Of a stretch of 64,000 nt of DNA, positions 15,127 to 60,061 are shown piece after piece (position 1 is the stretch's first letter; each line of letters starts with the position of its first letter). Under the pieces are notes generated by a model, which made no database searches, was not told the DNA's origin, and saw nothing but the letters and a program-made list of their open reading frames with translations. The DNA lies in assembly GCA_030704615.1 (NCBI GenBank), contig CM060732.1, forward strand, positions 11,098,001 to 11,162,000. Reading direction: 5' to 3'. Source of the DNA: Takakia lepidozioides (Eukaryota > Plantae > Bryophyta). A program made the translations under genes and the position numbers.

Positions 15127-15478
15127 ATTCTACACTACACCCGGGTCAAAATTAAAGTTGTGAAAGGTCTATGCTTAAGCAATAGGGCTACTTACGAAAG
15201 TCAGAAGCTGGTGAAATTTTCATCGGCTTGTAGTTCTTGCACACAGGTTGAGAAAACAGCAAAGACCCACTATAGCTGAAGTTCTCCTCAGATTCTTAAG
15301 TGTTGGGACAAAAGGTTTGATAAGGTGCAGTCCCTGCATGCAGGTCAAGCTAAGAAACTCTGGCAGGAGTCCTCCTTAGATCCCACACAGTGGTTGGAGA
15401 AAAGGTTTGATAAGGTGAGCGTGATTTGTTTAGGACGTGAAAGAGTATGTTGGGAAATGAAGCCAGCATCATGCTGTC

Positions 15479-25761: not shown

Positions 25762-25973
25762 TGTTGGTAACATTTAGATTATGTAAGTTATCATCCATAT
25801 AGAATGGATACGTCTATACGAAGGGTCACAACCCTTTTAAGGTATGACTGTTGAGTTGTTGAAGAGACATTGTCCTGTCTTCTTCTCTCTCATTCTTACT
25901 CATTCTTACATACATAAAATGGAGTAATCATACTCACTCTACACTAATGTTTGAGTGCTAGTATTTCATAACA
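25762..25973 (+). mobile_element. Copia LTR of the same family as 9861-10069, opposite orientation
   Basis: Near reverse complement of 9861-10069, with TG...CA ends. Preceded by purine tract AAGGAGGAG (25753-25761). No matching TSD seen. Confidence 0.9.
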
Positions 25974-34582: not shown

Positions 34583-36280
34583 TGTCATGGTTTTGGTCAT
34601 GGTTATCTAGAATTACCTACTTCTAGTTAACTAGGACATTTTAGATATTTATATTTATATTTTGTGTGTTGGGACTTCATTGGGTCTCACATGCCAAGTG
34701 AGGCGTCGAGCCTCAATTGGGACATGGGGATATGTTTTCCCCTTGTGAGGATGGAGGAGGCTCATCTTCTTGTAGTTGAGCCTCCATGAGCTTCTCTCAC
34801 CTCCATAGCTCTAGGTATTGAGAGGGAGTGTGTTGAGGGCTTTGTAGGGTGGATTCCCTTGGCAAGGGTGCCCTTGGCTTGACTTGTTTATGTGATAGAG
34901 TGGATTTCACTTGGAAGGACTAGGGCTTGTTCTTAGTGTGATTGCTTCATGCTTTGAGAGTTTTCATTGTCTTCCACTTCTCTCATTTCTCATCTCTTAT
35001 CACTACAAGAAGATCTATTTATGCTTGTGAGTGCGGAGTGTAAGGATTAGTTTTGCACTTGTATATTAAAGAGGTTGAGAGCTAGGAGAATTTAGCTCTT
35101 GTATCACAAGGCTTGCAAGGGGTTGCAAGGAAAGGTGCTCGGGTGTTGCATGCACCAAGGAGTTGGAGAGCTTGAGAAGGAAGCTCTTGAGTTACAAGAT
35201 TTTGCAAGGATTGCAAAGAGGAAGTCTTGTGTGTGTGGAAGCAATGATTCTAGGGTTTGAGAATCCTTTGTATGCATTATGGAGTCAATGGTGTGCGCCA
35301 TGGTTTATGGAGAGTGATTAAAGGATTGTTAGTGCTCATTTCACTATCAAGCTAGGGTTAAGCAAGTTCAAGGTGTGGATGTTGTGGAAAAGAAACCAAT
35401 GAGCTACATAGGCTTGGGCTTGAAGACAACAAGGGCAAGTACTTGGAGAGCACTAAGAAGCTCAAGAGGTTTTTGAAGGGAGAATGTGAAGAAATGTTCC
35501 AATCATGGTGGTGTGGAGCCAAGCTTAGGGCGCCATTGGAAGGGCTTGGAGAACATATGGTGGAAAATCCTTGAAGGAAAATCATCATTCAATGTATGCA
35601 TAGCTTCACCCTAACTATGTAATGTGACAAGAGGGGGAGGCAATACTTGGCTATTCATGCTCTTGGTAATGCGAGCTTTGTGGTGGATAGTTGACCAAGC
35701 AAGTGGTGCATGTGTGGAGCATGCTCTCTTGAGTTTGTAAGTTCAAGTTTGAGAAAGGGAGCTCTTGAACTAGCAAGAGGTGAAGGCCTTGAGATCCATT
35801 TGTGTGTGAAGTGGAGAGGTGTTGATTCATGTTATGATGAAGGAGAGCAACACGTAGGCAAAGAGGTCATGGAACATGCATTCAAATGACTAAGGGGAGC
35901 ACATGGATGATGAATTGGTGCAAGACCCCAAATGGCGTGAGAGTGGGATCCAAGGCGGATTGCTTGGGAGCATTATTGTAAGTGACAAGCATTGCTCCTA
36001 CACATTGAGATAATTTGTGTTGATTTGGAACAATTGTGTGATGAGGAGACAAATGCATGATTGTTCGGCAATGGAGATATGGTAGTTTGCAATCAAATCC
36101 CAAGGACTAGAAGGGGGATTGATTTGGTGGACAATGACTTGCAAGTTGAGTTGGACCACTCTTGGTTGCACATTGGGGTGGAAGAGAGCAAGAAGATGTC
36201 TCTTATGATCACCTAGAGACCATATTTTTGCTTGAGTAGAAGCATAGAAGCCAAGGACTTGCATTCTAGCTCTTCATTAC
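34583..36280 (+). mobile_element. 5' fragment (X-type repeat 34583-35002 plus leader) of a third, divergent relative of the DNMT-Gypsy family
   Basis: TGTCA...TTATCA ends. Hairpin GGAGGCTCA-loop-TGAGCCTCC. The adjacent site CTACAAGAAGAT (35003-35014) is complementary to 34764-34775. Leader motif TGCATGTGTGGAGCATGCT is shared with the copy 2 leader. The right boundary is approximate. Confidence 0.75.
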
Positions 36281-36595: not shown

Positions 36596-38778
36596 CAGTG
36601 AAGTATTTTGCCACGTAGCCTAAGTTGTTCCCAAAACAACTTAGGTGGCAAGATACTTTAGCGGTGTTCGACGTGGATATCCAGTACAAACCGGGACGAG
36701 ACAATGTGGTGGCCGATGCCTTAAGTAGAAAGCAGCAGCTCATGCTGGTATATAGGGGCGAGACGACGCTCCAAAGAAGATCCGGAAGACTTACCGGAAG
36801 GATGAGATGACGAAGTCTGTGATGCGAGACTTGAGGATGGGGTGAAATCGCAGTTCCACGTACAAAATGGACTGCTCCGGTACAAGCAAAAGCGTCTTTA
36901 TGTGTCGAAGGAAGGGATCAGAGATAGTCTCTTGAGAGAATGTCATATGGCCCGCTTTCGGGCCACGGTGGAGCCAAGTGCACCGCGGCACTCCTGAAGA
37001 AAGAGTATTTCTGGCCCAAACTGAGGGAGGAAGCCGATGAGTATGTCAAGACATGCACCATATGCCAACAAAATCGGAGCGAGTACAAAAAGCAAGCGAG
37101 GCTGTTACAACCCTTGCCAATTCCAAAGGGGTCTTGGGAAAGTGTCTCAATGGATTTCATGACTGCTATGCCGCTGTCAAAAGGATTCAGTAAAATGGGC
37201 CATTTTATTCCCACCAAGGAGACGGCAACGGCATAGGAGACGGGACGACTTTACTTCGCCCACATCTTCAAGCGAAGGATATTGTCTTGGACTGCGATCC
37301 AAAGTTCACAAGTAAATTTTGGAGGGCACTCTGGAAGAAAATGGGGACGATGCTCAAGATGAGCACCGCCTTCTGACCTACGACGGACGGCCAAATAGAA
37401 AGGGTGAATTTCGTGGTGAAGCAGATCTTGCGGAATCACATGTCGGCAGACCAATCGGACTGGGTGGAGCACTTGGACGCGGCAGAGTTCTGTTATAATA
37501 ACACAAAACACTCCGCAATGGGAGTTTCCCCTTTCGTATTGATCTATGGAAAAGCACCTCTGGTGCCGACAAATTGGGCCGCCCAAGACATTGAAGAACT
37601 GGCAACAGCAGCGGTGTTGGAAGAACGCAAGCGTTTGTTGAAGCTCGCAAAGTATAACATTGCCAAAACTAGGAAACGGTATGAACGGCAAGCGAATCGG
37701 AAGCAGAGGGAAATTAAGTTTGAGGCATGCACAGAGGTCTGGTTGAACATCAAGAATTTCCGACTACCTCCGGAAGTGGGTCCGAAATTCGTACCTCCAT
37801 ATGCGGGACCCTTTCGCATCCGAAAGGTTATGAATGAGGATATGTATGAATTGGAGCTATCGGCAAACAGCAAGGTGCATCTGGTATTCCACGTCTCACT
37901 TTTGCAGCCTTACTTCAAAGATGAAGCGCATCCGAATCGGCATCAAGTATTGCGTCCGCCACCCGTGCTGTTGGATCATGAAAATGAACCTGAGTACGAG
38001 GTGAAGGCAGTGCTAAGTCGAGGAGGTTCAAGAATTGAAAAAAGGAGTATCTCGTGGAATGGAAGGGCTATCATCATGTGGAGGCATCTTGGGTGCATGC
38101 CTCAGAAATGGGAAACGCATCCGAGGCGGTTGCAGCTTTCGAATGACGATCTCAAAAGCGGAAGAAGCGTTGATGGGGACATCAACCTTGGATCGTGGGG
38201 GAGGAAATGCATGCTTAGCCCGGCTTAGCTAGCTCAGGAATCTGTTTGCAAAAACTTGTATTGTACAAATTTTGTTGTAAATGAAATGGTTTCCAAATAT
38301 CGTGTTTCATATCTTATTTGGAATGGTGATGCATGGTATGGTTGGCTAGTGTGTAGAATGCATGCTAGCTTACAAAGTGAGAGAGGTAAATTGGATTAAT
38401 CGTGTATTTGTGTACTGTCGAAATCGGGTGACTCCCATCCAAGGGGCAAGGAAACTTGCAGCTTCGTTGGGAGTTCACGTGCTAGTGCGCACCTGGCGCG
38501 TGCGCGTACTATAACTGCGCTACCGAGGGGGTTGTCTTGTAGTGCGGGCTAACGCGGAAGCTACGTGCTTCTGTTCACATACTATAATCGTGTAGCCTCG
38601 GGATGAAGTCGTAATGCGGCTTCGGCATGTTCCCGTACCTTAGGCCAGCATTCCAAGGCAGACCCAATGTAGTGATTGGGGCGCACGGTTAGTTCAAGGT
38701 TATCTTCCTAGTCAAAAAAAGGTTCAAGACGAACCCTTGCTCAAGGTGATGCCAAAAGCGGCATCAGGAGCGGTTACA
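36596..38778 (+). mobile_element. Degenerate chromovirus (Tf2-type Gypsy) 3' part: end of RNase H, integrase, chromodomain, PPT and probable 3' LTR
   Basis: IQYKPGRDNVVADALSR; GHGG...CTICQ; WESVSMDF; GPFRI; EYEVKAVL...EYLVEWKGY. Purine tract near 38197-38207. Candidate LTR about 38208-38778 ending GCGGTTACA. Confidence 0.85.
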
Positions 38779-40624: not shown

Positions 40625-42045
40625 GTGATGACTTATGTGGGCATTAACGACCACATAATTCGTAACCTCACAAAGCTACGTGAGGAGCTGGAGGAGTTGC
40701 TTTTAGCGATCTCATCTCGCCATCCACGTCGTGTCACCATTGAGGTGAAATATGTTAAGCTAAATTTTGCCCACGATCTTCAGGCATCGTGGTACAGATT
40801 TCCTTCGCAGAAAGATGAGAGCCGCGATCATGACATTCGATTGGCAGTTCTCCGTGCAATTACTTCCTCCGTTGTGGATATAGTATCCTTGGAGTTGCAA
40901 CCGGCCGACACGAAGGCACATTACGAAGCGGAGTTGCGGAGTTCTGCAGAGGCTTGTACTCCAACCAGACTTTACGACACCTAGTCATCGGGTACTATGT
41001 TGTCGACGTAGACGGACAATTGAGTATGGTACATCACGTTGCAGAGATGCTTCGCGTGAACAACTCTCTAAAACATCTTGAGATTGATGGGATAGCCATC
41101 AACACATATTCAGCCAAGCTCTTGGCTGTCGCTTTGCCTGAAAATCGTGCCCTGCAAAATTTGCATTTGTCTCAGTCCTTCTTTCTGCCTGTGTCTACAT
41201 CCCGCGGGTCGGCAGAGGGAGTGCAAATGTTGGTGGCTCCTTTGGTTGCCACAGATCCATTAGGCTCCAACTCTGTGCTGCAGACGTTACGGATGGGGTG
41301 TTGTCTCGGATACGATAACGTCGGTTATGATGAGGCAGCCAAGCACGTGGCAGCGATGCTGTGTGGCAATTCTTCCTTGTTGGAGCTTGAGTTAATGTAT
41401 TGGAATATGACGTCGGAGGGCGGTGCTGCTATCGGCAGGGCTTTGGCCACCAACACCACCCTTACAACTCTAAGCGTGTATGGCTGCAAGATTGGGGCGG
41501 ATGGTGTGGAGGCGATAGCACAACATCTCGCACACCACAATTCTTCTCTCACACGCCTTAATGTTGGCGACACTTGGAGTACAGAGATAGAGGGAAGCAA
41601 GGCAGCCAACGCATTGGCCAACATGTTTCGATCCAACTCCACGTTGACCAATGTGGACGTGTCACGTAGTCGGTTTAACGAAGAAGGTATTGTGGAACTC
41701 TTCAAATCACTGGCCACCAACACGTCTTTGACAGACCTTGATCTTAGGGGTTGCGAGGTTGTTGCCGGGGACAGGGTGTTGGCAGCAATCGGGGATTCAC
41801 TGCGAGCCAATCTGTGTCTACAAAGACTCCTTACAGATCAATCTTCCTTGAGCATTGTAGATTGGAGTGGTGTAGAGAGAAGGGAGCAGCAATCGGTGTT
41901 ACGAGGAATGATGAGATCCGTGAGTCCGGAGGCAGCGAGCGTGTTGACTTACGGCGCCGCTGGTACTCAACCATACTTCCACTTTCTCATATTATATTCT
42001 TCCTATTTTGCTTTGCACCTCTTGAGGACGCCGAATGTAATGTAA
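40625..42045 (+). pseudogene. Ribonuclease-inhibitor-like LRR protein (TORNADO1-like N-terminus), copy A, frameshifted near 40937
   Basis: Repeats of the form L..N.SL..L.L (MLRVNNSLKHLEI, ALATNTTLTTLSV, SLATNTSLTDLDL). One base is missing relative to copy B. Possible splice donor after YGAAG. Confidence 0.75.
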
Positions 42046-42093
42046 CAAGTAACTCCGCAACACCGTGCAAGAATTCCGAATTCAGAACTAATC

Positions 42094-42282
42094 TGTCGTG
42101 CGCATACATATCGCTACACAACTACATCGCTGTCCAAAACCACACAACACATGTGCACACCACACACTAGTATACCACTAGTCTACCACTAGTCCAACCA
42201 CTAGTCCAACCACTAGGCTACAACTAGTCAGTCACTAGGCTGCCACTACGCTGCCCACTATGGCAGTCACTAGTCCACACAA
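42094..42282 (-). repeat. Terminal repeat Y, outer copy (189 bp)
   Basis: Direct repeat of 42612-42780 plus a 20-bp insertion; contains many CACTAG motifs. Confidence 0.95.
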
Positions 42283-42609
42283 TGATAAAGAAGAAGAATA
42301 CAAGCACAAGCTCATGCGAGCTCACAAAGCTGAAGCATAAACTCAGGCATATATAACCTCATCACTCAAATACAAGTCAAGCCAAGTGCACCCCACGCCA
42401 TGGGGAATCCACACTACGGCGCCATAGCTAGGCGCGGTGAGGCTCAACTCGAGAAAGATGAGCCTCCCGCGCTTGCCGTGAAGATAACCACTCCAGGGCC
42501 TAAATCTGCCTTGACCCCTGGATTGACACTTGGGCCAATCCCAAATGTCAATATGTAAAAGCTAGCTATTTCCTAGCTAGTTTCACACTAGTGGTAAAAT
42601 AACTTGACA
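42283..42609 (-). repeat. Terminal repeat X, internal 3' copy (327 bp)
   Basis: Direct repeat of 53429-53755. Confidence 0.96.
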
Positions 42610-42611
42610 GC

Positions 42612-42780
42612 TGTCGTGCGCATACATATCGCTACACAACTACATCGCTGTCCAAAACCACACACTAGTATACCACTAGTCTACCACTAGTCCAACCACT
42701 AGTCCAACCACTAGGCTACAACTAGTCAGTCACTAGGCTGCCACTACGCTGCCCACTATGGCAGTCACTAGTCCACACAA
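42612..42780 (-). repeat. Terminal repeat Y, inner copy (169 bp), preceded on the element strand by PPT AGGGGGGCGA (42781-42790)
   Basis: Read directly. Joined to X through the palindrome GACAGCTGTC (42606-42615). Confidence 0.95.
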
Positions 42781-43039
42781 TCGCCCCCCTAGCTGGTGCT
42801 TAGGTCCCTCTAAGTCCAGGTAGCCACAAGATGTGATAGTGACCATAGCCTCACTAAGTCCTCCACCACTATCCCTACTACACTCAAACTCGATAGATCA
42901 AGAGGCCGGGTGCAAGAGTTGCCCCATCGTTAGTCGCCGTCTTGCAACCTGTGAACTTGAGCTTGGGATCTCATGTATTGACTCCTATGAGCTTGGCCTC
43001 CCATGTCTTGTTAGCTGCCTCCAGTCATGTCCACTGCCA

Positions 43040-46000
43040 CTATCCCAAGCAGTGTGGACACAACCAATCTCCGTCAGGAACCTTCTCAAGGGGTGGTGTC
43101 AAGCATCCCATATGCCAACCCCTTGAGCACCGATCACACACCAGCATGGTGGCTGCCCCTTTGGCAGACCCACAGAGCATGCACCTCAAACCTGCAGGTA
43201 CCACTGCCAAGTTTGGGTCAACTCTGCCATCGACATTGGGAAGGTGACATGGCGCACAATTACGCACATGGTCTCTCCAAGTCATGCCATCCCGACCCTC
43301 TAAGATCAGGACCCCTGAGGGCAACACCTCTCGAACCCTCAGAATAACACGCCCTGCAGTAACATCCAGAGTCGTAGGAGCAGTCTGCTGCAAATAAACA
43401 TAGTCACCAGGGCTAAACCTCCGAACCCCAGGACGATATCCTCCACCACGTATAGTGGCATACCTCAACGTATCACGGTGCTGTGCAATGGCAAGGTTCT
43501 CAAAAGCCATGGGCATGACTTTCTTGAACAACTCTGCACGCTGATCACATGCACGTACCCACACGTCCGGATCGTCAAGGTTAAGGACTTGAGCAGTGTC
43601 CCTACGAATGGCTGCAGGCAAATCCGGCTCTCGGCCAAAGAGAAGGAAATATGGTGAGAAGGAGGCAAGTGATGCTTGTTTGCTGAACCTGTAGCCCATG
43701 GCTAACCAAGGAACCTGAAGATCCCAATCTCCTAGGTGTCCCTTCTGCAAGCCATACTTGCGCAAACCCCTCTTCACCGTCTGAACAACTCTCTCTGCTA
43801 AGCCATCGGCCTCAGGATGATCCCGAGAAGTGGTGCGGTGGTCTATCAAGGCTTTATCACACAAAGCCTGAAACTCCCCCAAGAACTCTCTCCCTTGGTC
43901 CGTGAGTACCTCAGCTGGAGCACCAAATCGGCTAAGCACACGATCCAAGAATGCATACGCAGCCCCCTCACTAGCCTTGTCAGGCAATGGAACCAACTCA
44001 ATCCACTTGGAGAAGTGCTCCACCATCACCAACACATATCTGTGGTGGCGCATAGTCAGTGGCAACGGTCCTGCGAAGTCAAGACTCCACCTGTAGCCCA
44101 ATCCCATGATTGGTAAAGGATGCAACTGTGGTGTAGGGGCGTTGAATGAAGCACGCACCCTGTCACACACCATGCACCTAGCCACAAACTGTTGCACCTC
44201 TGTATGCATACCACGCCACCAATACTGCCCCTGCAGTAAACTGTGAGTGCGTCGCACTCCAAAATGCCCCAACTCCTCATGGGCATGCCGCACTAACCGT
44301 GCACGCTGTGTGGGGTGAGGCACAATCCTCACCCGACCATCCTCCCACACTCGAAGTAGGTGTATCCCCTCCCACTTGAACCTCTTGGCTCGTTGCAGGA
44401 TCCGATCCCTCTCCCTGGCAGTCACAATGGCTGCCGTGTCTCCCGTGCGGAGGTAGTCCAACACAGCCGAATCCTCATGTATATCTCTGGCACCACCTAG
44501 CTCATCACTAGCCTCAGGGTCCTCAGACACTCCGTCTACAGTCATCCCTGTTGTAGGTCCAATCTGACCTCCCGATGCCAAGATACACAAAAATGCAGAT
44601 GCGTGCCATCCCGGCACCATCTCCTCGTCCGTCTCACCATGCCACCGAGCTCCAGTGTCATCCTGCTGGCTCATGCATGGATTGCGACTCAATCCATCCG
44701 CATCCCGATTGACCAAACCCGGTCGATGCACAACCTGAAAGTCATACTCCTGGAGTATAAGTGCCCACCGTGCAAGCTTCCCCGTAAGCTTGTCTGACTC
44801 CATCAACCACTTGAGTGGCTGGTGATCCGTGACAAGGGTGAAAAGATTGCCGTATAGATAGCACCTGAAGTGTGCCACGGCCCACACTGCAGCTAAGCAC
44901 TCTCCCTCATATGAGCTGTACTTAGCCTCTGCAGCGTTGTTCGAGCGGCTAGCGTAAGCCACTACGAACTCTCTTCCCTCATCATCCACCTGTGTGAGCA
45001 CCGCTCCAAGCCCCAGCATGCTCCAATCCGTATGCAGCTGAAAGGGACGCCCCCTGATAGGTCGTCTCAAGATAGGCGCCGAGGTCAACCTCGCCTTGAG
45101 CTCTTGAAAAGCTCGTTCCTGCTCATCTTCCCACTGCCACTCCTGGTCCACCTTGGTCAGCTTGGTTAGAGCCTTTGCAATGGTACTAAATCCCTTGACA
45201 AACCGTCTATAATAGTTTGCCAACCCCATGAAAGCTCGAACTCGGCTCACATCCGTGGGGCGTGGAATTTGTGCAATGGCCTCTACCTTAGTCTGCTGTA
45301 CCCCCAATCCTCCAGGATATATCATGTGACCCAGATACTCAATCTGGTTGTGGAAAAACTTGCACTTCCCCGGATGCAACTTCAATCCGTGCGCTCTCAA
45401 GCGCTCCAATACCACCTGAAGGTGTCTCTCATGCTCCTCCATCGTAACACTAAAGATGATGATGTCATCTATGTAGCACCGAGCAAAGTCCACCCCTGCT
45501 AGAATCCTATCCATGACTCTCTGAAACTCTGCAGGAGCATTCTTAAGCCCAAATGGTAAGAACCGCCACTGATATAGGCAATCCTTGCCGTGCTCATTGA
45601 TCCCCCAGAATGCCGTCTTCTGCTTGTCCGCCTCCTTGATTGGCAACTGGTGATATCCGGATCGTAAATCCAAAGTGCTAAAGGCCTTAGCATGCCCGAT
45701 GGCATCAAAGATCTCCTCTGGTGTTGGCATGGCATACTTATCGGACTTGGTCTGACGATTTACAGGCCGGTAATCACCGCACATACGTCTCTCCGTCCAA
45801 TTGCCATAGACATCCTTCTTGGCTGGCATCACTGTGGCTGAAGCATACTCTCCACCAGAGAGCTCCACCAAACCTGCCTCCCAGAGATCTTGAGTCCTCA
45901 TCTGAATCAAAGACCTCTCCATGTCACTGTATCTATAGGGTCTCCGAAAGATTGGCGTGTCAGTGGCCAACTCAATACGGATCTCTTGACCCTTCAGTGC

Positions 46001-46174
46001 TCCCAAGTCCTTCAAACTGAAGGCAAAGCAATTCCTGTAAGCCCTCAGGAACCGCCGTATACGTCGTCTCTCTCCTCCGGTGACAATGGGTCCAATGTCA
46101 GGCTCCCAATTGTCCTCCGTAACTACAACCTTAAGTCCAGTGGGCTTAGAGGTAGAGGACGCGTCCCGTGGTTG
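43040..46174 (-). CDS. Pol: RT - RNase H - integrase - PHD finger; intact frame starting directly after the UAG at 46175-46177
   Basis: YIDD; LHTDWS; HEELGH...CMVC; D-D-E residues in SLDFAG, LTDQG and AERVV; C-terminal C4HC3 motif CMLC...CDRC...WHMGC...WLCPHC. The 53 codons between the stop and 46015 are open. Confidence 0.95.
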   Translation of the reverse strand, partial: QPRDASSTSKPTGLKVVVTEDNWEPDIGPIVTGGERRRIRRFLRAYRNCFAFSLKDLGALKGQEIRIELATDTPIFRRPYRYSDMERSLIQMRTQDLWEAGLVELSGGEYASATVMPAKKDVYGNWTERRMCGDYRPVNRQTKSDKYAMPTPEEIFDAIGHAKAFSTLDLRSGYHQLPIKEADKQKTAFWGINEHGKDCLYQWRFLPFGLKNAPAEFQRVMDRILAGVDFARCYIDDIIIFSVTMEEHERHLQVVLERLRAHGLKLHPGKCKFFHNQIEYLGHMIYPGGLGVQQTKVEAIAQIPRPTDVSRVRAFMGLANYYRRFVKGFSTIAKALTKLTKVDQEWQWEDEQERAFQELKARLTSAPILRRPIRGRPFQLHTDWSMLGLGAVLTQVDDEGREFVVAYASRSNNAAEAKYSSYEGECLAAVWAVAHFRCYLYGNLFTLVTDHQPLKWLMESDKLTGKLARWALILQEYDFQVVHRPGLVNRDADGLSRNPCMSQQDDTGARWHGETDEEMVPGWHASAFLCILASGGQIGPTTGMTVDGVSEDPEASDELGGARDIHEDSAVLDYLRTGDTAAIVTARERDRILQRAKRFKWEGIHLLRVWEDGRVRIVPHPTQRARLVRHAHEELGHFGVRRTHSLLQGQYWWRGMHTEVQQFVARCMVCDRVRASFNAPTPQLHPLPIMGLGYRWSLDFAGPLPLTMRHHRYVLVMVEHFSKWIELVPLPDKASEGAAYAFLDRVLSRFGAPAEVLTDQGREFLGEFQALCDKALIDHRTTSRDHPEADGLAERVVQTVKRGLRKYGLQKGHLGDWDLQVPWLAMGYRFSKQASLASFSPYFLLFGREPDLPAAIRRDTAQVLNLDDPDVWVRACDQRAELFKKVMPMAFENLAIAQHRDTLRYATIRGGGYRPGVRRFSPGDYVYLQQTAPTTLDVTAGRVILRVREVLPSGVLILEGRDGMTWRDHVRNCAPCHLPNVDGRVDPNLAVVPAGLRCMLCGSAKGAATMLVCDRCSRGWHMGCLTPPLEKVPDGDWLCPHCLG

Positions 46175-46177
46175 CTA
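46169..46177 (-). promoter_or_regulatory. Putative stop-codon readthrough signal UAG CAA CCA (copy 2)
   Basis: Single in-frame stop between DNMT and RT. Matches UAG-CARYYA and is identical in copy 1. Confidence 0.8.
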
Positions 46178-49100
46178 TGCTGCAACCTCTTGAGCAGTAC
46201 TCCCTACCTGCTCAGTCAATGACAAGGCATCATCCTGCCCCATCATCTCATCCTTGAGGACCTCCTCAACTCGAGAAGAATCCCCAACCTCATCCATCAC
46301 AGCCGCCTTGGCTGCCAACTCCCTCTGAACCTCGAGCACCTCCCACGTGTGCCATGGATGCATGCACCCCGTGGTCCTCATATGCTCGCCCCCACTCACT
46401 GCCTGTACCGTCTCGGTAGGCAGAGAGACCATTGAGGGAAGTGTATTCCGCACTCTGCGTTGCTCAGCTAGAGCCAAGCTGATAATCCAGGTCAAGCAAT
46501 TGAGATCCATTGCTTGCCCCAACACTTGACGACGTGATGCCTCAGAAAGAGACGACACCGCCGTGGTACCAGTGGTAAAACCCATTGCCCGCTCACGCTC
46601 GTCAGCATTAGGCTCCACTAACTGCTGCAACTGAGCATCCCACAGGAGGCCAGGTCCACTATCCCGGAAAGCATGCGATCCTGGGAAGCTGAGCAGTGTA
46701 GGTAATGCTGCTCGTGGTTGACCCACCTTGTTGACCACTGCCAAAGGCGAACGGTCATCGTGTCTCACACGTTGAGACTGCCTCCCTGTGTCCAGAATGT
46801 TATCCACTGTGAGATGTGCTGGCCGCTGCACCCCATCAAATGCACGCTTGAGCAGTGCGGGTGGCATCATGTTAGTCCACCATAGCCGTGGACGATGAGC
46901 CCGTGACCCCACTGTAGCTGCATCTAGCAACACTGCTGACCCAAGCCACGACCGGACTTGATGCACACTGGCCATCACCCTGGCCCGAGAATCGCCCATC
47001 AGTGGCACATTCTCCAAGATGTATGCTGGAGATACAGCTTGATGAAGCTGCAAGTGGCGCAAAACCCGCACCATCTCCCAAAACAGACCCGACCTCGAGT
47101 CTCGCAATCCATTGCCATGCCCGGCTGATGAATGCCCTTGGCAGGGCCAACCTGCCACTACCAGATCAATGGAGCCAACCCGCTCCAAATCCTGCGCCCC
47201 CAGCAACGAAATGTCTGCTGGCAAGGCCTGCTGATATCCACGAATTGCAGACACCGACAACAACTCAGGGTACCGCTGCACCAACTGAGCAACATGGCGA
47301 AGTGAAACGCGTCGTGCAGTCTCATCCCTCTCCACATACAGGTAACGCCGAACTCGTACACCTGCCTGTAACAAAGCAGCCAATCCGGTGCTGATCCCGC
47401 CAAACAAGTCCAGAAGACAAATGCCTTCATCCGGAGACTGCCACACAATAGGTGTGGTGTCCAATGGAGACAATTGAGGTGGTCCTGGTGCAATCCCCAC
47501 ACTCTCCTCCTCTCCTGACGGTACAAAAGCCTCCACCCAGGCTTGTTGCACCCGTCGATCAGCATCCCGCTGCAAATCCTTGCTCGTGCCCCACAATGGA
47601 GTCTGAGCAACCATGGTAGGCAACTCCGCCATACCATACATGTCATCCTGCTCTCCCGGAGGTGGTACATCCTCTGAATGAGCATTGCCCTCAAGCAACT
47701 CTCTAGGCCAACTCACTGCCGCTGTGAATGCTGCTAGTGTCGGCATCTTGCCTCGCTGGGCAACCGCAACTCCTCCTATGAACGTCACAGGGAGCTGCAC
47801 ACGCCGGCCCTCCCCTGACTGCCATGCAGGCCTATAGGAAGCTGACTCCTCCCAAAAATCCAGGGTGAAGCCCATGGGGTACAACACTGCCCCACCAACC
47901 AGGACATCGTATGAGACTGCGTCTGTCACAATGGCCTTGGCTCGCATCACTGAGCCATCTGTAGGGTGATCCGGCCGTAGTCTGATAGCCAACTCATGCC
48001 GTGTCATGCCCCGAGCCTGCTCCGATCCTCCCAGAGACGTCTGTATCTGGAAAGGACAAGGCTCCATATCCGCCTCCGTGAGGCCCAAGCCTGCAATAGC
48101 AGCTCTGCCCAGCATCAGTGGCTGAGCTCCCGAGTCCAACAAGACTCGCAGTGGCCGGTACCTCTTGCCTGCCGGTCCACTCAAACAGAAAATGCCATCC
48201 TGGTTGTCTAACATGACAACTCCAGGTGTCACCATGGCGCGCTCAATGGCTGGCCTAGCTGGCAGCTCCATCAACCTGGCAGCTGCAGCTTGCCATGGCG
48301 CCGCCGTGGCAGTCTTGACCCTCAAATCCGAGGATCCCTCCGGCACTACACCTCCCACTATCTCCGCAGAAGATGAAGTAACCTCCCCACTCTCACAGAG
48401 TGTAGCTGCCAGCCTGAACACCTCAGCTGGTCTTATCCCCGGCGTCGCAATCATGGTAGCCGAGAACAATGGAGCCTGGCACACAGATGTGGCCGCTCCT
48501 ACAGCACACTAGCTGCCGTAGCCTTGGCAACACTAGGTAGTGGTGCTGCCCGTGTAGCTCTCCCCAATGGCATAGTAACCTCCGCCTCGGTAATAGTCGG
48601 GCGAGAACTAGGTGCCATGGATGGCGTCGACACTGTCTCCGCCAATGTGAATGACTGAGGAAGCCTAGCCTGACGGCTTGCCTCCCCACGCTGTGGATCC
48701 AACTCCACCTCTGCACCTCGTGGCTCAGGAACTCGTGCTGCTCCTCGAGTCACGGCTGCAGCAGACTCCACCTGCACTAGTGGTAGTGCTGCTCCACACA
48801 TGAATCCCATGCCTCCCATATCTCCTCCCTCAGGAGCAGGAGGTGGACCATCCGGCCTTAGAGCCGGTACCACCTGAGCTGTAGCCATGGCAGCGAGCCT
48901 CTGCTCTAGCTGCTGAAGCCGGTTGGCCATGCCTTGGTCAACACCCTGACCTCCGCGTCCTTGGCCACGTTGAGCTTGCCCTTGGCCTGCACCTCGTGGC
49001 TGGCCACCTCGTCCTCTCTGGGCTGCTCCACCTCGCCCCCGGCCACCATTGTTCCCTTGGAACTGGCCTGGGCGCAACTCAGGATGCAAACCTATAACAC

Positions 49101-50346
49101 TGGGCCTCTCCATGCCCGTGCTTGCCACAATGCCCACACTGCAACTGTGCAGGCTGTGCATGTGCCGACCCTTTGCCTCCCTCTGGGCAATCCTTCTTGA
49201 CATGGGGTCCTCCACATGTCCAGCACACCACATCCGCCCGTTGTTGGCCAGCAAATGAAGGGAGAGACCCCTGCATTGAGGTCCTCTCTGCCCTTCCCTG
49301 AGCTTCACCTGAGCCCCCTTGTTGCCTTGAGCACGTTGAGGTAGTGGTTGGCTAGGAGCACCACTACCCCGTGGTGTCTCCTTAGCAAATCCCACCATGA
49401 CCACTCGTTCCTCCACCATGTTGAGCTCTATCCGCTCTGCCAGCAAAAACACATTTGCTAAGGTGGGTTGGGCCGCTTGTAGGAGAGTTGCATCCCGCAC
49501 CCTTCTCCTCAGCTCCTTGTCCAATATCCCATACCAGAATTGGACTGCCTGAGCTTCCGTAACCCCTTGGGTTACATTTATCAAGCGCCTCATGCGAGTG
49601 AAAGCCTCCCTCAAGCTCTCGGTCGGCTTCCGTTGGAACTCTTGCAAGCTCCGCAACTTCTCTGTCCTCACCCCTTGGTAGTTCCCTCTCAACTCTTCGA
49701 AGAACTCCACAACAGGGTTGAAGGCAGGCACGGGTGCTAGTGCTGGTGCGGTAGTGGCTTGGGTGGACGTCGTAGCTACTGTACCACCAGTCCCACTGCT
49801 GCTTGCTGAAGCTGCCGGTGCAGCGGCAGGTGTAGCCACTGCCCTCGTGGCTCTAGTGCCCCTAGTGATGGAGACATAGTCGGGTGACCAGTACATCCTC
49901 CACTCCTCGATCTCAACCTCATGCCCCCGCCTGAACTCATGGTAATCATCCATAGGCGGCCCCTCAAGGTGCTGAAACAGCCCTTTCCATGCCATGAACG
50001 GCGTAAATAGTTGTGGATTGCGCATTTGCTGCAAATCACACCAACTATCAAACTCTTGGATAAAATCATCCAACTCAATGGTGCCCACCGCCCCAGAGTA
50101 CCTTCGTGGCCCCTTGGTAGCTCCATACATCTCCTCCATTGTGTCCCACAATAATGGCAAAGAAACAACTTGCACCGCCTGTATGAGCCCTCCTGATTCA
50201 CAATCCGAATCAGAACCTTCCGTGGAAGACACAGGAGGTGAAGGTGGCCTAAACCGCACACCTCGTCTCGTGTACCCACTAGTATCGCTAGTGCTCGAAC
50301 CGGCACTGTCCCCAGCAACTAGTGGCACCTCCGTGTTGACACTCAA
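46175..50346 (-). CDS. Gag - aspartic protease - DNA (cytosine-5) methyltransferase polyprotein (MTase about 46490-47425); a few 1-bp indels
   Basis: Gag with two CCHC knuckles (shifted frame 49079-49276) and protease LLDSGAQ. MTase motifs I DLFGGISTG, IV GWPCQG, VI ENV, VIII AHRPRLWWTN, IX ERERAMGF and X RRQVLGQAMD. The break near 48500 is open in copy 1. The true start codon is uncertain. Confidence 0.92.
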
Positions 50347-50637
50347 CCGGTCATGAACATGTCCCTAACCCCCTCTCCACAAGGTAACCGGGTAGAGAAC
50401 CTGTTGCGGCTTATGGTTTGGAATACTAAGTTCCTAACATAGCCTACACCTGAACTTGCATGACCATGGGAATATCATGAAGATACTCCTCAAACCGCCC
50501 TCCACGAGCTTCAAAATTCGGCCTTCCAGACCACATGCCAGTCCTTAGTCCACCAGTGCCTCCACAAGTCAGCACATGCCATCCACAGGTCAACACGGGC
50601 CACCACAGACCAGCACAGGCCCACACAGCTCACTGGT

Positions 50638-51890
50638 CACAGCCGTCACAGTCCCACAGGCCACTGGGCACAGCCCCTCACAGCCCCTCACAGCTCGTCA
50701 CAGCCTCAAAGGCCTCAGGCACAGCCTGTCACAGCCCCTCACAGCCCGTCACAGCCCCAAAGGCCTCAGGCGCGGCCTGTCACAGCCCCTCACAGCCCGT
50801 CACAGCCCCAAAGGCCTCAGGCACGGTCTGTCACAGCCCCTCACAGCCCGTCAGAGCCCCAAAGGCCTCAGGCGCGGTCTGTCACAGCCCCTCACAGCCC
50901 GTCACAGCCCCAAAGGCCTTAGGCGCGGCCTGTCACAGCCCCTCACAGCCCGTCACAGCCCCAAAGGCCATGGGCACGGCCTGTCACAGCCCCTCACAGC
51001 CCGTCACAGCCCCAAAGGCCTCAGGCGCGGCCTGTCACAGCCCCTCACAGCCCGTCACAGCCCCAAAGGCCATGGGCACGGCCTGTCACAGCCCCTCACA
51101 GCCCGTCACAGCCTCAAAGGCCTCAGGCACGGCCTGTCACAGCCCATCACAGCCCCAAAGGCCTCAGGCACGGCCTGTCACAGCCCATCACAGCCCCAAA
51201 GGCCTCAGGCACGGCCTGTCACAGCCCCTCACAGCCCGTCACAGCCCCAAAGGCCTCAGGCGTGGCCTGTCACAGCCCCTCACAGCCCGTCACAGCCCCA
51301 AAGGCCATGGGCACGGCCTATCACAGCCCCTCATAGCCCGTCACAGCCCCAAAGGCCTCAGGCACGGCCTGTCACAGCCCATCACAGCCCCAAAGGCCTC
51401 AGGCACGGCCTGTCACAGCCCCTCACAGCCCGTCACAGCCCCAAAGGCCATGGGCACGGCCTGTCACAGCCCCTCACAGCCCGTCACAGCCTCAAAGGCC
51501 TCAGGCACGGCCTGTCACAGCCTGAGACAGCCCGTCACAGCCCCACAGGGCACAGGGCACAGCCTGTCACAGCCCATCACAGCCCATCACAGCCTCAAAG
51601 GCCTCAGGCACGGCCTGTCACAGCCCCTCACAGCCCATCACAGCCCCAAAGGCCATGGGCACAGCCTGTCACAGCCCCGCACAGCCCGTCACAGCCCCAA
51701 AAGGCCACTGGGCACAGCCTGTCACAGCCTGACACAGCCCGTCACAGCCCCACAGGGCACAGGGCACAGCCTGTCACAGCCCATCACAGCCTGTCACAGC
51801 TTGCCACAGCCCATCACAGCCCGTCACAGCTCGCCACAGCCTGACACAGCCCGTCACAGCCCGTCACAGCTTGCCACAGCTTGCCACAGC
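50638..51890. repeat. Tandem array of 51-bp (some 41-bp) units built from 10-bp TCACAGCCCS subunits, in the element leader
   Basis: The unit TCACAGCCCCTCACAGCCCGTCACAGCCCCAAAGGCCTCAGGCGCGGCCTG is repeated more than 20 times. Confidence 0.96.
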
Positions 51891-53416
51891 CCCACACATG
51901 GCCGCTCTGGCAGTTTAGCCATTTCTCCAAGGGGTTTAGCCACGCCAAGCTAGGGTTTGTGTCTCTTGGACTCTAGGCTTCTTTCCACCGAGCTATGGTG
52001 GCTGTGAGGAAATCAGCAAGGTATCCTTGCTCTTTCGGCTCCCACACACCACCATAGTAGCCCTAAGCCATGAGGTGGTTGCCACAAACCAAGCCTTCTT
52101 TCTCACTTAGCCTCCCCAAACACGCCACTAAACTCAATGGCAAACAACCAAGTCCTGCTGGTTCCCAGCCCTTGTGAGCACTCATTCAAGCACTCTCCTT
52201 GGCCATAGCATCTGTCTTAGAGCCTCTTCCAGCCCCCTACACCTGCTGCTTCAAGAGTTGCGCTCCCTTCAAGCTTGAAGTTGAAACCCCAACTCACATA
52301 TGCCCTACAAGTGCTTTTCTTTCACTCCAAGTGGAAACCAGCCCTAGACCTTCCGTTCTAGCTCTCTAAAGCTTGAAAACAAGAGCCTCAATGGGCTGAA
52401 GGCATGCTCCACACATGCCCCACTCTCACCATAAAAGAATCAGCTCCTTTGCTTCATTTCTTACACCCACAAACCTGAAAATACAAGCTTCAGCATGCTG
52501 AAAGCATGCTCCACATGCCCTACAGGGAAACCAGCCCCTTCCTTCCTTTCTTGCACTCCCACACCTGAAAGTGCAAGCCTTCACCAGGCTGATAGCATGC
52601 TCCACACATGCATTGCCCTCACATAAGGGAAGTCAGCCCTTCCCTCTTCCTTGCTTGCCCTCCAAGCTTGAAGATGGAAGCTTCAATGAGCTGAATACAT
52701 GCTCCACACATGCAACCTCTTCACACAAGAGATATCAGCCCCCTATCTTGGCTCCTTGGCTCCTTGATGCTCTCTAAGACAAGACTAAGCACTCCATAGC
52801 CTTTGCCAAGCTCCTGAAACCCTAAGGCTTACATTTCCAGCCACAAGACACTTCTCTTGTGGTGCAAGAGCTCTTCTTCCAAGCTCTGTAACCCTAGGTG
52901 CACATTCCATGGCCTTGCCGCACCTCTTAGCTCCTGTTCCAGCCCTGCTCTCGCCATGACAAGAGCCCTCTCAATGCTGAAGCTCGAGATTGAAACCCAA
53001 TCTCACCATACTCCACAAAGTGCACTGATTTGCCCCAAGCCAAATCAGCCCTTTCGCTTGGTCTTGCAATCCTTCACACAATGACAGCTCGCATTCCCAA
53101 GTCCAGTTCTCAGCTTTGCCACCAAAGCCACTATAACCTGCTCTTGACTGGTCCTCTTCCCAATCGTGCTTGCTCATGCATGTACACAATCTGGAACCAT
53201 CAAGGTGCTCTGGAATTACCTGCAGCATGGTGCTTTCATCTCTGAAGCTGAAGATCGAATGCCAAGGTCTACCACCTCGTAACCCACATCGCCTCCGCTT
53301 CTAACAACTAAGAGCTCCGCGGTGCTCCTTGCATAACAACTTGGTTTCTCTCATTCTCAAGCAAAAACCACAAGTGCTACAACTAACTCGTATCTGGCAC
53401 TCATAGATACGAGCTG

Positions 53417-53428
53417 ATCTTTCTCGAG
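53417..53428 (-). promoter_or_regulatory. Non-tRNA primer-binding site CTCGAGAAAGAT, complementary to 53594-53605 inside repeat X
   Basis: Abuts the 5' repeat, lacks the TGG of tRNA PBSs, and shows perfect 12-nt complementarity. Confidence 0.8.
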
Positions 53429-53755
53429 TGATAAAGAAGAAGAATACAAGCACAAGCTCATGCGAGCTCACAAAGCTGAAGCATAAACTCAGGCATATAT
53501 AACCTCATCACTCAAATACAAGTCAAGCCAAGTGCACCCCACGCCATGGGGAATCCACACTACGGCGCCATAGCTAGGCGCGGTGAGGCTCAACTCGAGA
53601 AAGATGAGCCTCCCGCGTTTGCCGTGAAGATAACCACTCCAGGGCCTAAATCTGCCTTGACCCCTGGATTGACACTTGGGCCAATCCCAAATGTCAATAT
53701 GTAAAAGCTAGCTATTTCCTAGCTAGTTTCACACTAGTGGTAAAATAACTTGACA
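53429..53755 (-). repeat. Terminal repeat X, 5' copy (327 bp)
   Basis: TG...CA ends, followed by the TSD AATC. Confidence 0.96.
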
Positions 53756-54695
53756 AATCATTGGATGGTATGGATCGTAAGTCGATCAATGCAATAATTT
53801 GATCCTGTCGCTGAAGTGGATTACCGCAGTGGAACCCCTCGGCCAGTGGGGATTGCAGCCTGTCGGACTCCCATCAAAGTTCACCTCATCCTCCCAGTGG
53901 CAGAGGGGTTCCATATCACCTAACCTGCCGTTAAGAGACGCTGTAGAACCGGCAAAGAGTCTCAGTGTATACAATTTATCCCAATCTTAACATGAGGTAA
54001 ATGAATGAATACCGAAGTTCAAACTGAGGCTGTATCAATTTACTATGATTCATTTACTTTTACTCTCCCCTTGAAGAGATGGGCTCAAACCTTCCAAAAT
54101 AAAAATAGAATAAAAGACGCATTGCTTGGAACAAACACCCATACGGTAGTGTCTGTTCCGTCACAAAGGTAGTGTCTGTTCCCATTTGTTTCGCCAACCA
54201 GGGCATTGGTAAATTTAACCTGATCCCAGATTTCTTCATTCTCTGAATCGAGGATACAAGTAATCTGGAAGTCCGGGGTCCAAGGGTGTTGCGACATTGG
54301 AATGAGCGTTTGAGGCTATTGGGCTCTCAAGTCAACTTCAGAGTCAGCTTCACACTATTTCTATTTCCTTGTGACTGTTGGGGATATATGAAAGGATCAC
54401 ACAAAAGCAGGTCACGTCGCAACTTACTGCAACCCGGTCTGTTGTACCGTAGTGGGAGCCATTGATTCTACAGCTCATAAGGTCCGGTTATATGATTTGA
54501 CCTTGCTGGGGTGCCCTTGGGACTGAAGATTAGATCATTCCGGAATTTGACGTCATAAAAGTGTATAACTCGTCACCCTTTTCGCTCCCATGCATATGTG
54601 CACACGAACTGTGTTCCCGATTTTGCCCTCAGTGTGTAGGAGGATGGGAACAGAGGAGTTAGGGTTTAAGGATACATCGTTCCCTTGGTCCGAAC

Positions 54696-57162: not shown

Positions 57163-58569
57163 ATGGCGAGTGATAACCATTTGGAGGTGGAGCAGTTGCG
57201 TTTATCGGTCTCATCTCGCGATGCACATCATGTCGCCATTGGCGATCCACATCATGTCGTCATTGTGGTGTATTCTGTTACGGTAAAATTCGCCGACAAT
57301 CGTCGGGAGTCGTTTTACAGATTTCCTTTGCAGAAAGATGAGAGCCGCGATCACGACATTCGATTGGCAGTTCTCCGTGCAATTACTTCCTCCGTCGTGG
57401 GTATAGAGTCCTTGGAGCTGCAACCGCCCGACACGAAGTCACATTACGAAGTGGAGTGGCAGGAGTTCTGCAGAGGCTTGTACTCCAACCAGACTTTACG
57501 ACACCTAGTCATCGGGTACTATGTTGTCGACGTAGACGGACAATTGAGTATGGTACATCACGTTGCAGAGATGCTTCGCGTGAACAACTCTCTAAAACAT
57601 CTTGAGATTGATGGGATAGCCATCAACACATATTCAGCCAAGCTCTTGGCTGTCGCTTTGCCTGAAAATCGTGCCCTGCAAAATTTGCATTTGTCTCAGT
57701 CCTTCTTTCTGCCTGTGTCTACATCCCGCGGGTCGGCAGAGGGAGTGCAAATGTTGGTGGCTCCTTTGGTTGCCACAGATCCATTAGGCTCCAACTCTGT
57801 GCTGCAGACGTTACGGATGGGGTGTTGTCTCGGATACGATAACGTCGGTTATGATGAGGCAGCCAAGCACGTGGCAGCGATGCTGTGTGGCAATTCTTCC
57901 TTGTTGGAGCTTGAGTTAATGTATTGGAATATGACGTCGGAGGGCGGTGCTGCTATCGGCAGGGCTTTGGCCACCAACACCACCCTTACAACTCTAAGCG
58001 TGTATGGCTGCAAGATTGGGGCGGATGGTGTGGAGGCGATAGCACAACATCTCGCACACCACAATTCTTCTCTCACACGCCTTAATGTTGGCGACACTTG
58101 GAGTACAGAGATAGAGGGAAGCAAGGCAGCCAACGCATTGGCCAACATGTTTCGATCCAACTCCACGTTGACCAATGTGGACGTGTCACGTAGTCGGTTT
58201 AACGAAGAAGGTATTGTGGAACTCTTCAAATCACTGGCCACCAACACGTCTTTGACAGACCTTGATCTTAGGGGTTGCGAGGTTGTTGCCGGGGACAGGG
58301 TGTTGGCAGCAATCGGGGATTCACTGCGAGCCAATCTGTGTCTACAAAGACTCCTTACAGATCAATCTTCCTTGAGCATTGTAGATTGGAGTGGTGTAGA
58401 GAGAAGGGAGCAGCAATCGGTGTTACGAGGAATGATGAGATCCGTGAGTCCGGAGGCAGCGAGCGTGTTGACTTACGGCGCCGCTGGTACTCAACCATAC
58501 TTCCACTTTCTCATATTACATTCGTCCTGTTTTGCTTTGCACCTCTTGAGGACGCCGCATGTAATGTAA
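57163..58569 (+). CDS. RI-like LRR protein (TORNADO1-like N-terminus), copy B, open frame
   Basis: ORF 57007-58569 with first ATG at 57163 and the same LRRs as copy A. No downstream ROC-COR exon recognised. Confidence 0.75.
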   Translation: MASDNHLEVEQLRLSVSSRDAHHVAIGDPHHVVIVVYSVTVKFADNRRESFYRFPLQKDESRDHDIRLAVLRAITSSVVGIESLELQPPDTKSHYEVEWQEFCRGLYSNQTLRHLVIGYYVVDVDGQLSMVHHVAEMLRVNNSLKHLEIDGIAINTYSAKLLAVALPENRALQNLHLSQSFFLPVSTSRGSAEGVQMLVAPLVATDPLGSNSVLQTLRMGCCLGYDNVGYDEAAKHVAAMLCGNSSLLELELMYWNMTSEGGAAIGRALATNTTLTTLSVYGCKIGADGVEAIAQHLAHHNSSLTRLNVGDTWSTEIEGSKAANALANMFRSNSTLTNVDVSRSRFNEEGIVELFKSLATNTSLTDLDLRGCEVVAGDRVLAAIGDSLRANLCLQRLLTDQSSLSIVDWSGVERREQQSVLRGMMRSVSPEAASVLTYGAAGTQPYFHFLILHSSCFALHLLRTPHVM

Positions 58570-60061
58570 CAAGTTACTCCGCAACACCGTGCAAGAATTC
58601 CGAATTCAGAACTAATCATTGGATGGTGTGGATCGTAAGTCGATCAATGTAATAATTTGATCCTGTCGCTGAAGTGGATTACGCAGTGGAACCCCTCGGC
58701 CAGTGGGGATTGCAGCCTGTCAGACTCCCATCAAAGTTCACCTCATCCTCCCAGTGGCAGAGGGGTTCCACATCACCTAACCTGCCGTTAAGAGATGCTG
58801 TAGAGCCTGCAAACATTCTCAGTGTATACAATTTATCCCAAGATAAATGAATGAATACCAAAGTTCAAACTGAGGCTGTATCAATTTACTATGATTCATT
58901 TACTTTTACTCTCCCCTTGAAGAGATGGGCTCAAACCTTCCAAAATAAAAGTAGAATAAAAGACGCATTTCTTGGAACAAAAACACACATACGGTATCCG
59001 TATATTGCTGCGGTGCATCTAGTTCTGCTGTACTGGTCCCGTCTCGCGAAAGCTTACTCAATCCCTCCACCAACTTAGTCAAGCCAGTCACAAGTTGATG
59101 GAAGACCCACCTCTGTCTGACAGGCTGTCGGGTCCTCCACATGCTGCGTCTGGATGTGCTCACCAAATGTTTCCATTGGATTCCATGCCATTGCGCAATT
59201 GCATTCTTAGGTTTGTTCTTGTATCATCAGCCCCCACTTCTGCTTTTTGCATTTAGCAGTCAACCATAATCAACCACAAGTACTGTAGAGCGAGAGATCA
59301 CGGAGAATCATCAAGAGTTGGTGAAAAGTCGAGATCTGATGATTTCACATGCGATTGTGGTGATGGGTGGTGTGCGGTCTCAAGGCTCGTATTCCAGGAA
59401 CAGCTGCTCCGGTTGAGAGTAACAAGTGGTGTGTATCCGTGCAGGGGTTAATGACTATGGTGGAGAAAAGGTCAAAAGCAGCAACAGGAACCAAAACCAT
59501 GTGGTATGAGGTCTCCTCGTCACTCCTTGGGGGTACCAAATGGTATTGTCTACGATTGGTGTATGTTAGGCTAGGTCATAGGTGCAAGTGAGTGTGTCTG
59601 GAAGAGGTCATCGTCTCAAAGTTCCTTTCTTTTGTCATGGTAACAAGCGGACCCTTACCGCTTGGGGGCAGCCCTCCGCCCAAATTGGGCAGTCGTATGC
59701 TCTGTCTAGCATACTCGGCACTTGGGCTCGGGTTGGTTCCTGTGCTTAAACTTATAGCCTGCGACTACAATCAAAATTTTAGCTCCTATCAACATCAACA
59801 CTCCTCAGGGTGATTCCTGGGAATTGGTTACTTATGCCAAATCTAGGGCTTCATGTGTAGTTTTTGGGGCGAATCCCAGGATGGACGATGTGTCCTTTAA
59901 AACTACATGCTCTAGCTTAGGCTTGGATTTCATGGCTAATGGTTCCATCTCGAGACTTGATAACAGGGGTACGTTGAAGGTTGCAATGACCAAAAGTGCT
60001 TCTAATAGAGTCCCACAGTCCCTTGATTGGCTGGAGAGCGGTCTTAGACATTGGTGATTCA

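Follow-up and report, generated by a model that had tools for sequence, protein, structure and literature searches.

Split terminal repeats in a Ty3/Gypsy element of Takakia lepidozioides suggest integration through a site inside the long terminal repeat

The window analysed here is a stretch of 64,000 nucleotides of Takakia lepidozioides (GCA_030704615.1, contig CM060732.1, positions 11,098,001 to 11,162,000), and it harbours a minus-strand retroelement of 11.7 kb (42094-53755) that is Ty3/Gypsy by its proteins and a permuted variant by its inserted structure. Its terminal repeat occurs in two portions, termed X and Y, which on the element strand are arranged as X, internal sequence, polypurine tract (PPT), Y, GC, X and Y, the whole flanked by AATC duplications. 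Two further members of the family reach into the window, and the element itself is designated copy 2. The features, in window coordinates, are as follows.

8370-8717, minus strand: 5' X of family copy 1, which is inserted in a region of copia gag and has its 3' end left of the window
34584-35000, plus strand: 5' X of family copy 3, more distant and internally deleted, with its own self-primer/PBS pair
42090-42093, no strand: left target-site duplication AATC, present as a single AATC at the empty paralogous site
42094-42283, minus strand: terminal Y, 190 bp, whose ...CACGACA is the 3' terminus of the element
42283-42609, minus strand: 3' copy of X (base 42283 can be assigned to X or to the terminal Y)
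42606-42615, no strand: internal att-like palindrome GACA-GC-TGTC within the functional LTR Y-GC-X (GC at 42610-42611)
42612-42781, minus strand: inner Y, 170 bp, which follows the PPT immediately and forms the 5' part of U3
42782-42790, minus strand: PPT (A-G6-CG); relatives have a G-tract immediately before the inner Y
43040-46174, minus strand: open frame of 1044 aa with reverse transcriptase (RT), RNase H, HHCC zinc domain, DDE integrase core and PHD finger
46175-48508, minus strand: open frame of 777 aa with a protease-like region and a C5 cytosine methyltransferase (PF00145, E 1.2e-12)
48499-50364, minus strand: gag-like frame of 621 aa, in a frame different from that of the next ORF in this copy
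53417-53429, minus strand: primer-binding site (PBS), complementary to the element's own X and not to a tRNA end
53429-53755, minus strand: 5' X, 327 bp, without Y upstream, whose TGTCAAG is the 5' terminus of the element
53593-53605, minus strand: predicted self-primer (Tf1-type priming) in the 5' X, a 17-nt match with 1 mismatch; the predicted fold pairs primer with PBS
53756-53759, no strand: right target-site duplication AATC
58614-58617, no strand: empty paralogous target site with one AATC

The flanks of the insertion are 97% and 93% identical to a paralogous segment (57242-58996), and it is this segment that holds the empty site. The internal sequence between PPT and PBS spans ~10.6 kb, and the 10-mer GACAGCTGTC occurs only once in the 64 kb, at 42606. 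The two copies of X differ at 1 of 327 bases, and the Y pair is free of substitutions, but the terminal Y is 20 bp longer than the inner one. A preliminary description of the window had set out this split layout with its AATC boundaries and empty site, had taken Y-GC-X to be the functional LTR, and had equated the integrated ends with the two halves of the internal palindrome after loss of the central two bases. Every part was recovered at its place, and the relation of ends to palindrome is the same at the junctions of relatives. Copies 1 and 3 likewise begin with X and have no Y upstream, as had been described: the X of copy 1 directly abuts copia gag coding sequence, and that of copy 3 abuts AT-rich repeats. 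The 3' end of copy 3 was not found in the window.

Around the element, an LRR_6-repeat gene has been recently duplicated (40719-42093, 53753-54148 and 57242-58996; 97% and 93%), and the insertion lies 45 bp beyond the stop of one paralog. The window also holds a PPR gene region (15461-17397), a copia remnant (8718-10054) whose LTR-like repeat recurs inverted at 25769-25973, and a non-LTR element with endonuclease and RT matches (59990-63500). A decayed fragment of another Gypsy element, with a Tf2-like SH3 match and a tail that is chromodomain-like by eye, follows the deleted interior of copy 3 (36600-38200). Within the 3-kb leader of the element itself are long arrays of 10/41/51-bp and ~100-bp repeats (50577-51900 and 52333-52741).

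The best solved relative of the 1044-aa frame is Ty3 Gag-Pol (PDB match, E 6.5e-96); a pararetrovirus-type enzymatic polyprotein (E 1.5e-49) and retroviral RTs rank lower. The Pol order by Pfam is PR-RT-RH-IN, the protease being read from a D-S-G motif only, and the gag-like frame has a weak match that falls below the curated cut-off (PF03732, E 0.003). The integrase matches PF00665 and PF17921 and has its catalytic residues D699, D759 and E794 present. The second Asp and the Glu lie 34 residues apart (window core 43793-43900), as they do in 112 of the 115 pattern-matched homologs among 120 examined; the usual distance in integrases is 35 residues, and the spacing of 34 is a possible lineage marker. 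A PHD finger (PF00628, E 1.8e-10) is present in this frame in place of a chromodomain, for which the Pol frames gave no Pfam match. No tyrosine recombinase was matched in the 3 main or 46 minor frames, the threshold being E 0.1 for 47 frames of at least 70 aa, gag included.

The methyltransferase motifs FGGI, GWPCQ and ENV are intact in the 777-aa frame, and a methyltransferase match was obtained in 39 of 88 related loci. An in-frame TAG-CAA divides the methyltransferase and RT frames in both copy 2 (46175-46177) and copy 1 (1158-1160), and this stop is conserved in both metagenome subfamilies (L003, L011, L026, L032 and others). Its context resembles leaky-stop signals, and programmed read-through is likely, by which RT and integrase would be made more rarely than the methyltransferase. 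Named relatives come from Riccia, Marchantia, Calypogeia, Sphagnum, Coleochaete, Haematococcus, Hariotina and Tetrabaena. Marchantia polymorpha carries many of them; relatives of the methyltransferase in that species, at 60-77% identity, are annotated as hypothetical genes.

With the PPT placed before the inner Y and a self-priming PBS behind X, Y-GC-X is the functional LTR. A stretch near position 150-190 of X can pair with the PBS, and the pairs differ between subfamilies yet match within each. A self-priming score of at least 10, calculated without a shuffle control, was reached in 10 of 16 5' ends, with five distinct primer/PBS pairs that share one location in X. One related locus (L073:3242-3878), whose contig does not reach the 5' end, has a 3' end of Y-GC-X-PBS followed by an inverted copy of X 1-180 (12 mismatches in 180) that stops exactly at the 3' end of the primer; this tail looks like an uncleaved self-primer that was copied and used as the integrated end. 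Pairing of the RNA's own 5' end with the PBS as primer is described for the Tf1/sushi group and the moss Tcn1 chromoviruses, which are likewise Ty3/Gypsy elements (passages of PMC7175516 and PMC6317226). Both have ordinary LTR pairs and chromodomains, in contrast to the split repeats, PHD finger and methyltransferase of the present element.

The occurrence of the layout was followed in a metagenome scan, which returned 80 related loci of 40-84% identity, probably host-plant DNA, whose ends were read by BLAST with X and Y libraries. Past the matched integrase, 25 of these end in Y-NN-X-Y and 30 in a single Y. The remaining 25 are uninformative: 20 have no Y match, on short or interrupted contigs, and the other five are cut at a contig edge (L066, L068), have the site deleted (L030/L031) or bear an inverted tail (L073). 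With loci of the same flank merged and a second element in L078 included, the independent 3' ends amount to 17 Y-NN-X-Y and 23 single Y. Beyond those 17, a further Y-X-Y end lies on the other strand of L027, and a young Y-X-Y end with identical Ys was found in a different collection (L083). Exact 4-bp duplications bound all five complete two-repeat copies (AATC in the window, TCTC in L011, ACCT in L032, GTAG in L077 and CCTA in L080). Among seven complete single-Y copies the duplication is exact in four and has one mismatch in two, L072 being the remaining copy. The suggestion that the split layout may be the norm of the family is thus borne out by the 17 independent ends, and a search of other copies for ordinary YX...YX LTRs gave none, as Y precedes X in 0 of 16 PBS-adjacent 5' ends. 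Because single-Y ends make up 23 of the 40 independent 3' ends, copy 1 need not end in Y-X-Y, as had been anticipated for it.

The mirror-image product X-Y-GC-X-internal-Y is absent from the five complete two-repeat copies (P = 0.03 at 1:1) and from the seven complete single-Y copies. The latter may be insertions of one-LTR circles or later Y-Y deletions. Six tests of the age of single-Y against Y-X-Y copies gave P values of 0.075-0.55 (L020, L029, L065 and the second L078 element, outside the two subfamilies or truncated, were left out), and CpG depletion is slightly stronger in the single-Y copies (P 0.075 and 0.091). This depletion leans weakly, without reaching significance, towards later Y-Y recombination and weakens the support that these copies lend to one-LTR circles.

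In other collections, single-sequence scans gave one weak locus among viral contigs and none among genome contigs. An alignment scan of the viral contigs gave 66 distant RT matches, four of which were inspected (L089-L092) and lack such repeats; L085, L086 and L088 stop before any site. The contigs of L082-L087 sit in bacterial genome bins, most likely as contamination from algae or bryophytes. That of L082 is circular and was considered as evidence for a circle, a use that was rejected since direct repeats collapse to a circle in short-read assembly. Two anomalous ends were also observed. At the 5' end of L057-L059 (2615-3002), the first 100 bp of one X variant is fused exactly to the start of another X variant, the double X lying within one ATGG duplication; nested insertion with subsequent recombination, or an autointegration circle, may have produced it. 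In L032 (9173-9335), the terminal Y ends one 15-bp unit sooner than the inner Y does. It stops at a copy of the end motif that lies further upstream, with an exact duplication, and either cleavage at that copy or deletion by slippage may account for it.

The internal site is conserved. In 809,131 bases of related loci the Y|X junction motif was counted 31 times, five Markov controls gave 0-2 occurrences, and in a scan of spacer lengths all 31 fall at 2 bases, with none at 0, 1, 3 or 4. Spacers of 5 and 6 bases gave 5 and 2 uninspected matches, probably from a 15-bp unit that recurs within Y. The 23 independent junctions have GC as their spacer in 9 cases, AC in 5, GT in 5, AT in 3 and TC in 1. 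It was considered that, given the spacers AT, AC, GT and TC, the palindrome might be incidental, and this was rejected. Deamination at methylated CHG turns A-GC-TG into the spacers GT, AC and AT, so 22 of the 23 junctions hold GC or one of its deamination products; CHG sites in the repeat pairs of these copies differ at 29-33%. The two youngest copies (the window element and L083) have GC, and CACGACA-GC-TGTCA is kept at 42-43% Pol identity although the remaining X and Y are no longer alignable. At 42% (L084) the site is whole and forms a 14-bp perfect palindrome, and at 43% (L087) it runs into the contig end. With GC in both young and distant copies and the spacers other than TC attributable to its deamination, the palindrome is the conserved state. 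By the chemistry of DDE enzymes, the inserted ends and the loss of GC would follow directly if each strand were cut after CA, in a staggered fashion. The att site holds CG and CHG contexts, and the element encodes a C5 methyltransferase.

The X|Y joint behaves differently from this fixed site. In the window it lies at about 42282-42285 and corresponds to a fusion of the two predicted cDNA ends, that of the PBS side with that of the PPT side. Of the 13 joints in the larger subfamily, 12 enter Y at the base immediately following the G-tract, and the X side stops at varied points, with at least five forms among the 13 insertions. Two joints contain inserts, a 17-nt filler in L008 and the PBS with ~270 nt of leader in L077. 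This ladder-like joint with its fillers fits fresh end-joining in each insertion.

The reading preferred here, to which a probability of about 0.6 is given, is that an end-joined circular cDNA is cut by the DDE integrase at the internal CACGACA-GC-TGTCA site of the left LTR. Its parts are not equally firm: it is highly probable that the element's own DDE integrase integrates through the internal site, and rather probable that the circle forms before integration. As the sequences suggest, transcription would start in X, and the 5' end of the RNA would pair with the PBS and so prime its own copying. Reverse transcription, as in standard LTR biology, would yield a linear Y-GC-X-internal-Y-GC-X, whose two free ends would be joined, probably by host end-joining, into an X|Y joint that varies between insertions. 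Cutting both strands after CA at the site of the left LTR would leave two CA-3'OH ends, each with a 5' overhang of 2 nt and shaped like the processed ends of a retrovirus. Their joining to the target would generate X-internal-Y-GC-X-Y with a 4-bp duplication and without the GC, which is the product seen, the 2-base 5' overhangs being presumably lost on repair. Promoter, PBS, PPT and a complete 3' LTR are all retained after insertion, so the cycle could repeat. A one-LTR circle cut at its sole site would yield X-internal-Y copies.

Some observations sit less easily with a circle cut in its left LTR. A symmetric two-LTR circle has two equal sites, and the mirror image would be expected half the time; since it is absent, an extra asymmetry has to be assumed. 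A speculative source of such a bias is that integrase loads when the site first becomes double-stranded, at plus-strand transfer, which may explain the one-LTR products too. The unequal lengths of the Ys in the window, 20 bp apart despite the near-identical Xs, would also count against this model, and unequal pairs occur in L017, L032, L077 and L078 as well. The limited reach of the self-priming match, with 10 of 16 5' ends, weighs on the same side.

The alternative that survives best, though it is considered unlikely, differs in the order of events. A linear cDNA would be cut in its left LTR, the halves joined to the target, and the break between the outer ends repaired by the host into X|Y. 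The preliminary description had the integrase cleave a circular intermediate at the att-like palindrome; the DDE integrase and the internal site of that proposal stand, and the circle is the less secure part, for the sequence would be no different if a linear cDNA were cut at the internal site and its ends joined only after integration. Joining afterwards predicts the same product, 4-bp duplication and variable joint with fillers, and accounts for the missing mirror image neither better nor worse than the circle. It offers no direct route to X-internal-Y, however, so that all 23 single-Y ends among the 40 would need later Y-Y recombination, and the complete single-Y copies still show duplications (four exact and two with one mismatch, of seven). 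Large deletions at the joint are also uncommon in the 17 joints seen.

A second alternative, judged improbable, has the RNA include the terminal Y, so that X|Y is inherited as in PAT/Ngaro-like templating, Y-GC-X is regenerated from the internal junction in a circle, and the DDE integrase opens that circle. The layout A1-B1-A2-B2 is common to PAT and Ngaro in the passages of PMC4157794, and the use of a single junction would follow if only the regenerated one were accessible; unequal Y lengths would also be permitted. The X|Y joint nevertheless varies within a subfamily, and the conserved PPT before the inner Y and the PBS after X fit ordinary LTR priming. No columns diagnostic of inner as opposed to terminal Y exist in either subfamily. 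Distances between Ys are lower within than between elements (0.120 vs 0.148 and 0.079 vs 0.099), and both Ys of L080 lack the 15-bp unit, a private variant common to the pair. A terminal Y had the inner Y of its own element as nearest neighbour in no more than 4 of 12 and 1 of 4 cases, however, which counts against the preferred reading. Taken together, these comparisons lend modest support to the copying of both Ys from one template.

It is less probable still that a tyrosine recombinase acting in trans inserts the circle, as in DIRS-order elements, and that the DDE integrase has another role. Here too the layout is that described for tyrosine-recombinase elements in passages of PMC4157794, but the element is without a recombinase, its catalytic triad is kept, and unrelated 4-bp duplications, TG...CA ends and the loss of 2 central bases are signatures of DDE enzymes. 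A one-off aberrant insertion or an assembly error in the window is the least credible account, given 17 independent insertions in other hosts, whose repeat pairs have diverged by 5-20% and should not confuse assemblers, and a clean empty paralogous site.

In its HHCC and DDE integrase, PBS, PPT, TG...CA termini and 4-bp duplication (4-6 bp in the class), the element is a member of Ty3/Gypsy; ordinary members carry two complete identical LTRs at their ends, whereas this element ends in X and Y. The preliminary description had regarded an A-B-A-B layout as typical of PAT and Ngaro and not of DDE-integrase elements. The layout is indeed shared with that group, yet a Gypsy example is already in print: the legend of Fig. 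4c of de Mendoza et al. 2018 gives KnitGypsy-Dnmt3 of Klebsormidium nitens as having DIRS-like repeats with Gypsy domains (PMC5890265). That element and the present one both combine Gypsy Pol and a C5 methyltransferase with DIRS-like repeats, as far as the available part of that paper goes, and they likely belong to the same lineage; no Klebsormidium-labelled protein was among the relatives returned by the protein searches. The text passages of PMC5890265 contain nothing on a duplication, internal site, self-priming, PHD finger or mechanism. There, 'circular' and 'PHD' have 0 occurrences and the sole 'TSD' concerns a LINE. No other paper searched uses the name KnitGypsy-Dnmt3.

In passages of PMC4157794, the split direct repeats A1-internal-B1-A2-B2 are attributed to the tyrosine-recombinase retroelements PAT, Toc, Kangaroo, Ngaro and Viper. 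The PAT/Ngaro group uses a tyrosine recombinase, in contrast to the DDE integrase, Ty3-like RT, PPT, PBS, TG...CA ends and 4-bp duplications found here. Tyrosine-recombinase retroelements are not known to make target duplications.

A closer parallel to the proposed cleavage is afforded by the integrases of HIV-1 and foamy virus, which can cut the palindromic junction of two-LTR circles to leave CA-3' ends (passages of PMC4372172; see also PMC1180852 and PMC1905944). In those viruses the site is the ligated LTR-LTR joint, the provirus is ordinary and the reaction is a side path, whereas the present element has its site built into U3, makes no use of the ligated joint and yields the permuted product as the norm. 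Circle junctions of the IS3/IS30 type consist of abutted inverted ends with a 2-3 bp spacer and are opened by a DDE enzyme. These belong to DNA transposons whose transposase makes the junction; in the present element the LTR itself holds the junction, and reverse transcription copies it.

The REXdb search (PMC6317226) required, in its available passages, two LTRs, TG/CA ends and target-site duplications, so it would presumably skip a split layout, and 'PHD' is absent from those passages. The accessible part of a preprint on adenine methyltransferases in retrotransposons (10.64898/2026.05.21.726589) has nothing on the layout. No published account of the site or mechanism was found in a search whose reach stopped short of Repbase Reports, theses and subscription journals. 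The layout has thus appeared in passing (PMC5890265, as available), and the site and mechanism were not found in print.

These comparisons bear on how an LTR element can enter a chromosome. In the textbook account, LTR elements and retroviruses insert a linear cDNA by its ends, and circular forms are regarded as dead ends or a side path. The present data suggest that a retrovirus-type integrase cuts within the terminal repeat of a copy that is likely circular, and not at natural DNA ends, in a lineage of liverworts, mosses and green algae that leaves only products needing a cut inside the LTR. Programs that recognise LTR elements by two full LTRs and a target-site duplication will miss or mis-trim this whole lineage, and a methyltransferase and a PHD finger are here tied to an element whose att site has CG and CHG contexts. 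As Marchantia polymorpha carries so many relatives, normal use of circles by a DDE integrase is directly testable there. A broader and more tentative reading, placed somewhat short of even odds, is that a Ty3/Gypsy branch spanning the green lineage has abandoned end-based integration, with its integrase turned into a site-specific endonuclease-integrase and circles its obligate substrate, two-LTR circles giving live copies and one-LTR circles X-internal-Y. If so, the branch would represent an independent DDE route to the architecture of tyrosine-recombinase retroelements, a natural case of the circle-precursor model long debated for retroviruses, and a means of inserting circular donor DNA that bears one 14-bp site.
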